Below are positions 15,500 to 57,882 of a stretch of 64,000 bases of DNA, piece by piece. Position numbers and translations under genes: made by a program. The stretch's first letter is position 1, and the number at the start of each line of letters is the position of its first letter. The notes under the pieces were generated by a model that saw nothing but the letters and a program-made list of their open reading frames with translations, had not been told where the DNA came from and made no database searches. Source of the stretch: Narcine bancroftii (taxonomy: Eukaryota); contig NC_091470.1 in the NCBI RefSeq assembly GCF_036971445.1, forward strand, positions 341,620,001 through 341,684,000. Reading direction: 5' to 3'.

Positions 15500-16110
15500 A
15501 GCGTTTCACTGCTGGTAAGATTATGATGGGCTTAGATAGAGTGGCCAGCCTTTTTCATGGGCTACAATAGCAAATACCAGATGACATCTGTTTAAGTTGA
15601 ATGGAGGAAAGTTTAATGGAGTCATCCAAGATAGTTTGGTGGTGGGTGTTTAGAATTCATCACCAGAGGTGCTGGTGGAGACTGGTATGATAGGGACTAT
15701 GGTGGTACACCACTGGCCTACTGCAGGGGGAAACCTCTGTACCTGCAGGAGTGTAAGGGGACAGGACAACACCCTAGTCGGGTGTCAATCACCTTCCGGG
15801 ATATAAGCCTGCGCCGGCCGGCCTCCTGAAGCTCACTCAGAGTTACTGCAGCTGCAGCCAGCCTGGCTCCGTGGAAGTCTTTGTGGATTAAAGCCTGTTG
15901 TACAGTCTTTACCTTGTGTGTGTCTGATTCTGGCTAACAGCACACTACAGGGACATTTAAAAGACTGGTAAGGAAGCCAGCACATGGATGAAAAAGAAGT
16001 AAAGGGTTATGGTACAAGGTAGGGAAGGATTAGATTGTTGAGGAGTAGGTCGGCACAGCATTGTGGACTGAAGGGTGAGTACTGTGTTGCAATGTTCTAA
16101 TTTCTATGTG
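15500..16110 (+). mobile_element. CR1 3' fragment interrupted by a solo LTR
   Basis: AAGATTATGA...GATAGAGTGG...GGGACATTTAAAAGAC and CR1 3' UTR motif. Confidence 0.7.
15698..15949 (+). mobile_element. Solo LTR of the same family as the Gypsy at 55167
   Basis: 5-bp TSD GGGAC (15693-15697, 15950-15954); shares AACCTCTGTACCTGCAGGAGTGTAAG and TGTGGATTAAAGCCTGTT...CAGTCTTTACCTTGTGTGTGTCTGATTCTG with 55167-55446. Confidence 0.9.
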
Positions 16111-43318: not shown

Positions 43319-45544
43319 TGTAGCGGACCGAGCGACCGTGCAGTTAGACGGGCCGATTCACTGCCCCAGTCGGCCGACTGAAGATGGCGTGGGTCTCCAC
43401 TCCCAAGGTGAAGCCTGCAGTTGACGCCATGTGTTGCCCAGGGGAATTCCCCACTTCCAGGTGGCATACCGCCAGCCAGAGACTGACGTCGCAACGCACA
43501 GACATCACTTCCAGAAGCCGGCACAAATGTCACCAGAAGTGAGTGTTCCCTGAGGTGCAGCATGAGGAATTCAAATAGTTACTAGTTCACCCTCACACCG
43601 TGTGGACATCTTTTTATTCTGTAGCACTGCCATAGCAGATGCTACAGTGGTGACCCCGACAGTTCCACTGTTTTGAAACCCCCATCGAGCGTGACGGAAT
43701 CCAGGTTACTGCTACCATTACAGTCACAGAGGCTGTTAGAGGGAAGGATTTTCCCAACCTACACAGATCACAAACCACTCACCTATGCACTCAGCAAGGT
43801 CTCAGACCCATGGTCAGCAAGGCAGCAGCGTCACCTCTCCTACATGTTGGAGTATACCACAGATATTCGTCACGTCACAGGCAAGTCCAACATGGTGGCC
43901 GACGCATCATCCAGACTCACGATTGCCATAACCTCAGGAGGGGCTCGACATCGCCCAGCTGGCCAAGGACCAGGTGGAGGACGCGGATGTCCAGGCCTCC
44001 GGGACTGCCATTACCATCCTGAAGGTCAACAACTTCTGCCCCTCACCAGGAGGCCTGTCCCTACTGTGCGACATATCCACAGGATTCCCCAGACCCGTCC
44101 TACCTACAACTGGTGACGGCGGGTTTTTGACTAGATCCACGGTCTGTCCCACCCCTCCATAAAGTCCACTGTCCGCCTGTTGTCTGATAAGTTTGTGTGG
44201 TATGGCCTCTGCCAAGACATGACCCTGTGGGCTAAAACCTGTTTGTAGTGCCAATGCACCAAGATACACAGACACACCAAAGCTCCACTCCAGACTTTTG
44301 AACCGGCACAGCGCTGGTTTGAGCACGTGCACATAGACATTGTCAGCCCACTCCCCATGAGCCAGGGTACGTGGTATCTGTTCACAACAATTGGCCATTT
44401 TACCCGCTGGCTGGAAGCCATACCCCTACTCACGTGCTACACAGAGACGTGCCCCAGAGCTTTATTATCCAATTGGGTCGCGTGGTTCGGAGTCCCGACC
44501 CACATTATCTTAGACTGAGGGGTGCAGATCACTTCGTGGCTCTGGACGAACCTAACTAGGTTCTGTGGCAGCAAATTACACAACACCACAGCCTATCATC
44601 CTCAGGCAAATGGCCTGGTTGAGCGTTTCCACTGCCACCTTAAGGCAACTCTGAAATCTGACTACAAGTCCCAAACTGAGTGGACGAGCTCCCATGGGTG
44701 CACTTAGACATCTGTACACCACTAAAGGAAGATCTACCAGCTTCTTCCACTGAGATGGTGTACAGTTTCCCACTTACCATCCCAGGGAACATTCACTTCA
44801 ACACCCCCCCCCCCCCGCCCACAGCCCAGCTCCTTGGACATCCTCCAGAGGTTGAGGGTGCAAGCGAGTAAACAGGCATCTCTGCCACAGTCCCGACATG
44901 GCTCTCTAACCTACCACATCCCCGCAGACCTACAGTCCAATGACTACATCTTCTTGCGGAGAGGACAACAAGGAATGCCCCTACAGTGGCACTACAAAGG
45001 CTTATTCAAGGTGCTGCAGAGAAATGGTGTCATGTTTACACTGGGCATTGGCGGCCAACAAGACAGATTCACAATCGACCGCCTCAGGGCAACGCACCTG
45101 GATTCAGACCTTCTGGTCAGGTTAGGCACAGAAGCCGACCACCCAGAGACTCTAAATAACCTCCTCAGCAGGCGGCGGCGATTCGGGGGGAGGAGGCGCG
45201 GTGGTGTAACAGGCTGAGCCACCATGCGGTTAGACGAGCTGAATCGTTGCCCCAGTTGGCAGACTCAAGATGGTGTGGTCCCCCTTCACTCCCGAGGAGA
45301 AGCCCATGATTGACGCCATGTGTTGCCCAGGGGAACTCCCCGCTCTGGGTGGCGTTCTGCTGGCCAGAGAGTGACGCTGCGACATGCCGACGTCACTTCT
45401 GGAATCTGGCGCAGACGTCACCGGACTGGGTGTTCCCTTACGCACAGCGCGAGGAATTCAAATAATAAAGTCAGTTACTGGTTCACCCTCGCACTGTCAA
45501 AGGACCTCTTTTTATTCTGTAGCACTGCCGTAGCAGACACTACA
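43319..45544 (+). mobile_element. Two-LTR Gypsy element (CsRN1-like) lacking gag, protease and RT
   Basis: LTRs 43319-43646 and 45205-45544, 4-bp TSD GGTC, PBS 43648-43660, purine tract 45185-45204; interior holds only RNase H end (YTDHKPL...NMVADA) and integrase (HIDIVSPLP, TTAYHPQANGLVERFH). Confidence 0.92.
43648..43660 (+). promoter_or_regulatory. Primer-binding site, tRNA-Trp type
   Basis: TGGTGACCCCGAC one base after the 5' LTR. Confidence 0.85.
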
Positions 45545-46469
45545 GGTCAACATTTCAGGCTGGGACCCTTCATCGAGGCTTTCTTGGTGAAAGGCTCTGG
45601 CATAAAAATGCAGTTTATTTTTTGTACTACTAATTAGTGGCAATTCTGCTGTGCCCGCAGGGAAAAGGAATCTCAGGGTTGTATGTGATGTCATGTATGT
45701 GCTCTGACAATAAATCTGAAATCTAAAATCTAAAACATTATTCATCTCTGATGATATATTGAGTTCATTGCTGTATGCGTTGAACAATGTACACATGTAC
45801 CAAGATTCTTACTTGTAACTGAATTCTGATGCTGCCCAACCCACTGAGTTCCTCCATCTGATTGTTTTTTTAGCTTCAGATTCCAACATCTGTGGTCTGT
45901 GTGTTTCTGGTTCAGTATATTATTATCTTTGGGACCTTGCAGTGAACAAATTGTCTTTACAGAAGATTTTTCAGCACCCTGAAGTGGGTAAAACTCCTGA
46001 AAAAAAGCAGGAAATACTTCTGCTATTTATTCATGGTCTTCTTATCACAATTTTCAAGCAATGAGAGCTTCCTTCAACCGCAGAACAGATTGTCCTCAGA
46101 CAAAATCATTGAAATTTCCACCTGCCAATGGCTTAAGGGCTCCCCCTATAGTCACAATTCTGTGTATCAGGAGGCATAATGGATTGATGAAAACTGCAAA
46201 GAATCTAAGGAAAATGAGGCTGTGTTGGGGTTGTTTCGTTGGGATACAGAGTGGGGATTTGATTCAGAGTATAAAATTATGAAGGATTAGTCAATTGGAA
46301 GGAGCTATTTCCCTTAGCAGAGGAAACATAAATACAGAAAGAAATTACAATGCATCAGTTCTTTTAATTTTAAAAGAACTGATGTAAAGATTAGAGGAGA
46401 CTGAGAATTTTCATCTGGAAGGAGGTAGGAGTTTGGAACATGCAAACAAGGGTTAAGAAGTAGAAGTCC

Positions 46470-55166: not shown

Positions 55167-57882
55167 TCTGGTGGTGCACCACCAGCCTACTTCAGGGGGC
55201 AACCTCTGTACCTGCAGGAGTGTAAGAGGACAGGACAACACCTGGCCGGCCGGGCCAATCAGTCGGCCTGAGTAGATCAAGCCCCACCCGGTCGGGTGTC
55301 AATCACCCTCCGGGGGATACAAGCCTGTGGAGGCCTCACACTGAGTTGCGGCAGCGACAGCAGTGGCTCTTTGAAGGTTTTTGTGGATTAAAGCCTGTTC
55401 AGTCTTTACCTTGTGTGTGTCTGATTCTGTCTAACAGCGCACCACAATTTAATCCACAAAATTTTCCCACGGCTGCCATGGAAAAACTCCTGTACGCAGG
55501 GAGCCTCAAGGTCGAGCCACGCCACCCGGAAGCCCAGACACACTTTGAGATCTGGTAGCACGCGGTCGAGAGATCTGGTAGCACGCGGTCGAGGCAATCA
55601 TCGAGACACACGAGGGCAACATCCTGGACTCTGATCAGAAGAGGTTGGTCCTACTCCGGTCAAAGCTGGGTCCCCAAGCCTTCCAGGTAACCAAAGGCTG
55701 CACCATGTACAAGAGCGCAATGGAAACTCTTGAGAACTTGTACAAGCCCCCCATGAATGTGGTCTGTGCAAGGTACCTCCTCAATACCCAAGCCCAGCAA
55801 CCCGGAGAGATGGCTGAGTCTTACCTGGGACACTTGCGAGAGTTGGCCCAATTGTGTGGCTGAACCCGGGGTAGGTGTAGAGGAGGTCGAGAAGCTGATC
55901 CGGGACACCTTCGTCCGAGGGCTATGCTCAAGGGCCATCCGGCAGAAGATGCTGGAGGACAACATCTATGCCCTAACCAGGAATGTGGAAGTGGTCCAAA
56001 CCCTGGAGGCAGCACCCCTCCATGTCGAAGCCTTCAATTCTGGATTTCCCCAGGCTCCCTCATGGCCCTCTCACACTGCAGCTGCAGCCCCAGGCTGAGC
56101 TGGGGAGGAGAACATGCCTGCGGCAGGCACCCGGTGCCCCTATAAGTATTGTGGGTCAGATCGACGATCACGCCAAAACTACCCACCTAGGAACCTGTAT
56201 TGTTCCCGATGCGGCAAGAAAGGCCACTTTGCAAAAATGTACCTTTCTTAACGTGCCGGCAGCTCAGCGGTCCTCTATGACCTCCCTACCTCCCCCGCGG
56301 ACACCCCCACACGTGTGCGTGCCAGACGGCGCCATTGTCCCCGCGACGACTTCCATCTTCCCTGGCCCTGCCAGCAACCGTTGCACCATGTGCCCCAAGC
56401 ATGTACCAGCCCTCGCTGCTCACTGAGGTCGATTCCGGCTCACGGCGTGATGTCACTGCCGCTGGCCGTGATGACGTTGCTTCCCCTGGCACAGCGGACA
56501 TGCCTGGGGAAGGAGGCCAGCCACACAGTGGCTCCCAATGTGCAGCTGCCATCTTGGGCCAGGCAGCGCCCGACACGGAGGGCCCCTGACGATGTGGAGA
56601 ACAACTTGGTCAACACAGGTGATGACCAGGCCGCTCTACCGATGCTCCCCATGCCTCCAGGTGCCATCAGCTGCCGCACGCCGCACGCACCCAGTGACCA
56701 ATGGCAACATGGTCAACACGGGCGACGACCAGGCCGCCCTATCAACGCTCCCCATCCCTCCGGAGAGCGACGACTCCAACTCTGAGATGGTCCTGGCCGC
56801 CACCACGCTGACCAGGGACATTCCCCACGTTCTTGGGCGCTCGATGATGGACGTGCGAGTCAATGGGCAGTTAATAAAGTGCCTGTTGGACAGTGGCAGC
56901 ACCGAGAGCTTCATTCACCCAAGTGTGGCCCACTCCCTAAGGTTAAAGATCCACCCCACCACCTGCTCGATTGCCCTCGCCACCAAGGATAAGACTGTTG
57001 GTACCCTCGGGCACTGCTCGGTCAATATAATGATGGGAGGGGAGACTTACACGGGATTCAGGCTCCTGGTCATGCCCAAACTCTGTGCACCACTCCTCCT
57101 GGGCCTGGATTTCCAGTACCACCTGCAGAGTGTCACCCTTGCCTTTGGGGGGCCCCAACCTCCACTCACATGGCACAGCACGCCAACCTACCAGCCCCGG
57201 TCAACCTCCGGCTTCTCCGCACTGCGCATCACCCCACCAGTGCTCTTCCCACATCGTGCGCTAATTGCAAGCCGATCGCTGCCAGAAGTAGGCGCTATTG
57301 CGCTGCAGACAGGGACTTCATCAATGAGGAGGTGCGGTGACTCCTGGCGGAAGCGTTATAGAGCCCAGTAACAGCCCTTAGAGAGCCCAAGACCTGTTGG
57401 TCAAAGGGGGAAATAAGCCGAGGATGGTTGTGGATTACAGCCAGACCATTAATTGGTACATCCAGCTGGATGCCTACCCCCTGACGAGGATCGCCAACAT
57501 GGTCAATGAGATTGCCCGCTAATGAATTTTCTCCACGATTGACCTGAAGTTGGCGTATCACCAAATCCATATCCACCCAAAGGACAATCCCTATACCTCC
57601 TTTGAGGTGGACGGGCACCTGTACCAGTTCCGCCGGGTTCCTTTTGGGGTCACGAATGGGGTCTCCATCTTCCAGCAGGAGATGGATCGCATGCAGACCG
57701 GCGTAAGCTAAATGCGACGTTCCCCTATCTGGATAATGTCACTATCTGCAGCCGTGACCAGCAGGACCACGATGCTAACCTGGAAAAATTCCTCCAGATG
57801 GCCGCGGAGCTGAACCTCACAACAAGGAGAAGTGTGTGTTCAGCACCACCCGCCTTGCCGTCCTGGGGTACATCGTGGCCCA
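55167..57882 (+). mobile_element. Gypsy retrotransposon, 3'-truncated: 5' LTR (55167-55446), gag, protease, RT
   Basis: gag ATG 55478 (GCCATGG); ARYLLNTQAQQPGE, CSRCGKKGH knuckle, CLLDSGSTESFI, RMVVDYSQTIN, FSTIDLKLAYHQI, VPFGVTNG, FPYLDNVTIC; several stops and frameshifts. Confidence 0.92.

Follow-up and report, generated by a model that had tools for sequence, protein, structure and literature searches.

A clade of animal Gypsy elements with LTR-complementary primer binding sites, predicted to prime reverse transcription from their own transcript

The window analysed here, a stretch of 64,000 nucleotides from Narcine bancroftii (NC_091470.1, forward-strand positions 341,620,001 to 341,684,000), carries a decayed Gypsy element at 55167-57882, the features of which are collected in Table 1. 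Homology stops at 57882 without a 3' LTR, and the 5' LTR of this copy has the termini TC...CA, compared with TG...CA in the family. The LTR boundary placed at 55446 in the original prediction agreed with the solo LTR of the same family, whose flanking 5-bp duplication supports this end, and independently with the 3' LTRs of family copies, which end at the same CA. The gag ATG was found 31 nt past the LTR, as had been described. Another Gypsy element of the window (43319-45545, with LTRs at 43319-43646 and 45205-45545) provided a local control; the ordinary TGG primer site claimed for a neighbouring element was located there, at 43648. We take this site to be of the tRNA-Trp type and the integrase of the element to be CsRn1-like. 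At the start of the window, positions 1-263 form a tandem repeat of 79-nt units that are 98-99% alike.

Table 1. Coordinates of the Gypsy copy and of the related solo LTR within the window.
Feature	Position	Strand	Remark
Solo LTR, same family	15698..15949	+	GGGAC target duplication; primer strand present, partner absent
5' LTR of Gypsy element	55167..55446	+	280 nt in this copy, approximately 290 nt elsewhere in the family
TATA-like box ATACAAG	55317..55323	+	ATATAAG in 15 of 30 copies
Putative self-primer strand, fully complementary to the site at the primer binding position	55379..55392	+	TTTTGTGGATTAAA; includes ATTAAA
GCCT (conserved RCCT motif), directly 3' of the paired LTR strand	55393..55396	+	
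GT-rich stretch, putative downstream poly(A) element	55411..55424	+	
Single spacer base A between LTR end and primer binding position	55447..55447	+	A in 30 of 31 families
Primer binding site position	55448..55461	+	complementary to LTR, not to tRNA
gag, two zinc-knuckle type	55478..56250	+	broken: short tandem duplication, frame changes, stops
Protease plus 5' portion of reverse transcriptase, with YLDNV motif	56832..57882	+	broken

In place of TGG, the LTR is followed by a single A and then by a site that is the exact 14-nt reverse complement of a segment inside the LTR. Both this arrangement and the presence of ATTAAA within the paired LTR segment (at 55387-55392) were as originally reported, and no extension of the complementarity is possible on either side. 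With the primer binding site (PBS) held fixed, more than 11 bp was reached by none of 20,000 base-shuffled LTR stretches. The window also holds six further inverted repeats of at least 14 bp with short loops; helix length alone is thus not rare, and the register of the helix is decisive. The sequence upstream of the primer strand (55345-55378) can additionally pair with the leader before the ATG (55462-55477) and lengthen the stem, an observation that, judged by eye, was not general across loci.

A DNA search of the 3.3-Gb assembly returned 2,584 candidates, 40 of which were scored. When 20 copies were read over 9.9 kb, a second LTR with the same CA end appeared in 14 of them at a distance of 4.2-6.6 kb, and 10 of these 14 were flanked by an exact 5-bp target duplication. 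The Ty3/Gypsy assignment is based on these family copies, which have TG...CA LTRs, the target duplication and a purine tract (PPT) preceding the 3' LTR; the order gag-PR-RT-RH-IN was read by Pfam in family copies and relatives. Since the LTR pairs are 78-93% alike, the family copies are old. A young sister family in the same genome (L188, L189, L190), with LTR pairs 97.5-100% alike, carries its own compensated helix.

The first 30 copies had been picked by a query containing the site, and the search was repeated with gag alone. In this gag-picked set of 30, which includes the window copy itself, a site of this kind after the LTR end was found in 29 copies, and one copy was without an LTR end. 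Between 11 and 14 of the 14 positions pair in 24 of these copies and fewer in two, while four were not anchorable. The prediction had named a deleted TGG site in this copy as a possible artefact, and none of the 30 gag-picked copies has TGG at the PBS position. An exact pattern spanning both strands matched 657 places in the genome. The six other inverted repeats of the window are what could be said for chance, or for a local inverted duplication or loss of a tRNA site in the window copy, as the origin of the complementarity; given that 657 copies share the site and that relatives keep the helix with other letters, we consider this origin extremely improbable, and it was refuted by the gag-picked copies, the genome matches and the motif-anchored covariation presented below.

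Patterns permitting any change on both strands identified 14 places with a double change at helix position 8, all with T:A replacing G:C. These copies belong to one subfamily, its gag being 65-85% alike to that of a typical family member, and the majority have C:G at position 14 as well; they are thus counted as one or two events rather than 14. Single, mismatched changes at position 8 were observed as T:C (5) and G:A (10), which may be later mutations or tolerated intermediates.

Relatives of the family were collected with a protein search using RH-IN, which matched 485 proteins, of which 120 were listed. Among the 120 listed, the closest named proteins came from rays and sharks, the named hosts were cartilaginous fishes (sharks, rays), the sea anemone Nematostella, the nematode Trichuris and an aphid, and most entries were polyproteins of 1,150-1,300 aa with a shared gag start and the RT motif YLDN/YLDD-V/I-T. 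A gag-query search for long proteins found nothing, and two scans of viral contigs found no relatives. Gag alignment searches of two collections contributed 5 loci and 80 loci (80 of 323 confirmed), and the gag of a relative used as query contributed 30 loci of other families from the same genome as the window. In total 114 loci were examined, two of the set of 5 loci having been left out beforehand for want of a gag start; six with less than 100 nt upstream were dropped, and clustering of the remaining 108 by gag DNA at 80% identity produced 46 families. Three of the loci (L051, L052, L054) are clade elements with LTRs on contigs titled as bacterial metagenome bins, which are likely host DNA.

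In 31 of the 46 families and, counted by locus, in 63 of 108, a perfect helix of 11-18 bp begins two bases past a CA (LTR end +2). Helix-bearing families made up 27 of 33 outside this genome (with the window counted) and four of the 13 old families inside it. At 14 loci (L054, L056, L057, L059, L061, L064, L069, L074, L076, L078, L095, L188, L189, L192), the 3' LTRs independently identified this CA as the end of the LTR. Fewer than 11 perfect pairs were found in 15 of the 46 families, nine of them among the 13 old families of this genome; the short helices elsewhere measured 4-5 bp (L091, L094, L101, L106) or 9 bp (L105, L117). Some copies are without the helix even in good families. At three further loci (L079, L102, L108) gag clusters with helix-bearing families, and the upstream DNA contains neither an LTR end nor the helix.

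The 31 family sites comprise 27 different 11-mers, and they pair on average over 14.5 bp with their own LTR versus 4.7 bp with the LTRs of other families; only 10 of 930 LTR swaps reached 11 bp, all of them joining families with nearly the same site. Because selecting families by their helix is circular, both strands were re-anchored by their flanking motifs alone, using the first member of each family, which was feasible for 30 of the 46 families. Watson-Crick pairing at positions 4-13 was 84% in these 30 families, against 48% in shuffles (maximum 59% of 10,000) and 20-35% in slid registers; due to the relatedness of the families, which are not independent, these percentages should not be read as p-values. 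All four pair types occurred at helix positions 5, 8, 9, 11 and 13. Additionally, compared with its sibling copies, L064 carries a G>T change in both LTRs together with the matching C>A change in the site, as is expected if the primer templates the site, in what is a single case. The check for covariation proposed with the original prediction thus returned conserved complementarity with compensatory changes, and we conclude from these comparisons of sequences that the helix is a real, covarying feature of the whole clade.

The prediction had also called for a comparison of the site with host tRNAs. Against 40 host tRNA genes representing 16 anticodons, the window site matched over 5 nt at most and the longest matches of the 31 family sites measured 5-9 nt, and a host tRNA match was rejected for the window element on this basis. 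The TGG site of the neighbouring control element was also unmatched in this sample, which contains no Trp gene. A primer derived from a host tRNA half or another small RNA, with the LTR match being secondary, would have a precedent in the half-tRNA primers of Copia lineages described in the available part of PMC6317226, and the 16 anticodon types mark the breadth of our comparison; it is nevertheless very unlikely, as 27 different sites each match their own LTR.

Altogether, these observations make tRNA-independent self-priming, as originally suggested, very probable when priming in trans is counted in, and the element probably primes reverse transcription in cis, using its own 14-nt LTR stretch instead of a tRNA. 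By analogy with Tf1, the segment 55379-55392 would pair in the RNA with 55448-55461, and the RNase H of the element would cut at 55392/55393 within AAA|GCC (AAA|RCC in general). The new 3'-OH would then be extended over 55447 to 55393, yielding a strong-stop DNA of 55 nt. This DNA would reach the 3' end of the RNA in a jump that uses the short stretch by which cut site and poly(A) site overlap.

The primer is predicted to be internal and to keep a 5' tail, with transcription starting about 40-45 nt upstream in the families of this genome. Of 30 family copies, 15 have a TATA-like box upstream of the predicted cut at a distance of 89 nt and four more have one at 76-94 nt; among 22 anchored loci from other families of this genome, 11 have one at 83-89 nt. 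None was found in five of six LTRs from other hosts, and the TATA-like motifs were chosen after the sequences had been viewed. The usual offset from TATA box to start is 30 nt, which applied to these positions predicts that the primer begins 40-45 nt inside the RNA and, for the window copy, a start near 55345-55350. Four sequencing runs stored as contigs yielded neither start nor end sites for the RNA. Upstream of the paired LTR strand, at about 45 nt or less, six loci in families from other hosts (L052, L098, L109, L117, L119, L128) have a pyrimidine tract followed by CAG, which resembles a splice or trans-splice acceptor and could shape the 5' end of the RNA ahead of the primer.

Priming could likewise be free of tRNA with the primer supplied by the 14-mer at the 3' end of the RNA, by the second RNA of the particle or by a short transcript ended in the 5' LTR. 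Both LTRs contain the segment, whose end coincides with the poly(A) hexamer in 22 of 31 families, and the covariation results fit a primer of this kind equally well. We consider it unlikely, given that no more than 24-72 nt separate the 5' copy from the site (the range of the loop between the strands in the 31 families), that Tf1 sets a precedent in cis, and that the cis helix is itself predicted, with pair probabilities of 0.7-1.0 for the inner 11 pairs. Folding of the 156-nt leader as a whole was only modestly better than that of shuffles (z -1.6).

The original prediction had offered, alternatively or in addition, that the helix hides the poly(A) signal of the 5' LTR. If this were its function and priming took another, unseen route, it would be explained that the partner strand follows only the 5' LTR and that a canonical hexamer (AATAAA/ATTAAA) lies within the paired strand in 22 of the 31 families. 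In the other nine families the paired strand has no such hexamer (two of these strands end in GAAGA or ATAGA), and some families keep AATAAA/ATTAAA unpaired in the loop, so that hiding the signal is not the main task of the helix. Furthermore, the fixed register one base past the LTR end is needed by a primer and not by occlusion, for which reason the helix is read as a primer duplex; no other primer site was found, and occlusion as the sole role appears quite improbable. What stands of that proposal is at most a side effect: under cis self-priming, the helix would bring the 22 families with a hexamer in the paired strand the added benefit of hiding it, and this in the 5' LTR alone.

At its inner end the helix does not vary (A:T in 31 of 31 families), and GCCT or ACCT adjoins the paired LTR strand in 22 of 31. 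RCC follows the inner end in most families, even those without a poly(A) hexamer. Directly after the paired strand, 18 of 30 families have a short RCCT...AGGY hairpin, where 2.9 would be expected and 2,000 shuffles gave at most 9; its strict form is absent from the window copy. At six loci (L057, L068, L070, L109, L119, L128) the gag start codon lies 0-4 nt past the primer site, so that the helix abuts the translation start, which may couple translation and priming.

The description of the element as not chromoviral held for its domains and for its position outside the sampled chromoviruses, while the trees leave chromoviruses as a possible sister group. Neither a chromodomain nor SH3_Tf2-1 nor a Ty3-type capsid was detected in the 120 listed relatives or in nine relatives that were scanned, apart from one sub-threshold Retrotrans_gag match among the nine. 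PF00385 and PF24626 were absent from the same 120 and from nine of nine scanned, and were both present in the control P0141; a sushi-type control carries the chromodomain, SH3_Tf2-1 and the Ty3 capsid. In an RT-RH tree under LG+G4 the clade formed one group with support of 100 (43 of 57 rows), sister to Mag-type elements at 82. Under a mixture model it was again recovered at 100/100 (30 of 57 rows), with the sampled chromoviruses as a separate group at 97/96 that was sister to the clade at 50/70. These trees have no true root and do not include Tf1 and Ty3 themselves; the Gmr1-type rows were labelled by gene order, and the Mag-type and CsRn1-type labels are our own assumption from motifs. By these trees, the clade is not nested in the sampled chromoviruses (sushi elements). 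The same genome also harbors decayed sushi-type chromoviruses and many Gmr1-order elements (L178, L186, L179-L187), and amongst ten elements read, Pfam SH3_Tf2-1 matched mostly those of Gmr1 order.

We tentatively propose, as a combined reading that we hold to be possible though doubtful in its entirety, that a large animal Gypsy clade acquired self-priming independently of Tf1/sushi, with an internal primer overlapping the poly(A) signal and cut at a fixed AAA|RCC junction marked by a stacked hairpin; a single helix would then serve both to initiate reverse transcription and to prevent early polyadenylation, with freedom from tRNA and from tRNA-fragment silencing. The covarying signature gives an exact predicted cut site and the 55-nt strong-stop product, which makes the mechanism testable on a short RNA. 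It is likewise relevant to the frequency with which tRNA priming has been lost, to the means by which LTR elements keep their transcripts from terminating in the 5' LTR, and to annotation tools built around a tRNA site. Self-primed elements would, in addition, offer no target to 3' tRNA fragments.

In the literature covered, which included parts of PMC3601003, PMC5341516, PMC2871265, PMC6238403, PMC8556966 and PMC8220671, no description of priming in this clade was found; subscription journals, Repbase, GyDB and Dfam were outside this scope and could contain a name for the clade or a mention of the site. What appears new here is a variant of known self-priming, in a clade that has neither the domains of chromoviruses nor a place among the sampled ones. 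To our knowledge, self-priming has been demonstrated experimentally only in the yeast element Tf1, and within the accessible portion of the literature self-priming in Gypsy elements is tied to the Tf1/sushi chromoviruses. Like Tf1/Tf2 of Schizosaccharomyces pombe, Tj1, Tosmo1-3 and the Tf1/sushi chromoviruses, the clade has the Gypsy domain order and no tRNA site. As in Tf1, the site just past the 5' LTR complements the element's own LTR. According to the accessible sections of the Tf1 reports (PMC7175516, PMC4600332, PMC10085805), the Tf1 primer measures 11 nt and is cut free by RNase H: the initial 11 bases of the transcript pair with the PBS and the cut follows base 11 (PMC7175516), within a three-helix structure (PMC10085805). 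The clade differs in its helix of 11-18 bp, which overlaps the poly(A) hexamer, in its RT motif, and in a primer predicted to be internal rather than formed by the first nucleotides, for which the cited portions of the Tf1 literature hold no precedent. Unlike the Tf1 'pretzel', it has the short RCCT...AGGY hairpin, and three helices were not detected; in a crude longest-helix test of the 31 families, counterparts of the two flanking Tf1 helices measured 4.5 versus 4.9 bp and 6.3 versus 6.2 bp against shuffled loops.

Outside chromoviruses, the trait has been predicted for the TAR lineage of Copia elements (Houba, Osr-1), as it has for the Tcn1 chromoviruses, from PBS-LTR complementarity alone; these elements are Copia or chromoviral and have plant hosts, and the part of PMC6317226 at hand reports no covariation or poly(A) overlap for them. 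The 'Conserved Hairpin Site' of fungal GalEa Copia elements and bivalve biv-TRIM elements likewise combine a missing tRNA site with a hairpin at the PBS position; in the available text of PMC5445492 and PMC6934838, however, both arms are placed downstream of the LTR, in which the authors detected no partner, whereas here one arm lies in the LTR. Amongst animal elements, the clade shares its hosts and the lack of a chromodomain with Mag A/B/C, CsRn1, Gmr1, Saci2 and MolGy1-16, and we take its two-knuckle gag to resemble that of Mag. Identity with Saci2/lennie was set aside on the 4-bp duplications and tRNA sites described for Saci2 in the accessible part of PMC12471100. The clade could prove identical to a MolGy or LGF clade. 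Unlike in Gmr1, where integrase precedes RT, IN follows RH in the clade, and the Gmr1-order elements of the same genome group apart from it. In both trees, where the non-chromoviral animal Gypsy clades are represented by rows from this genome rather than by named references, the elements described here form a separate, long-branched clade.
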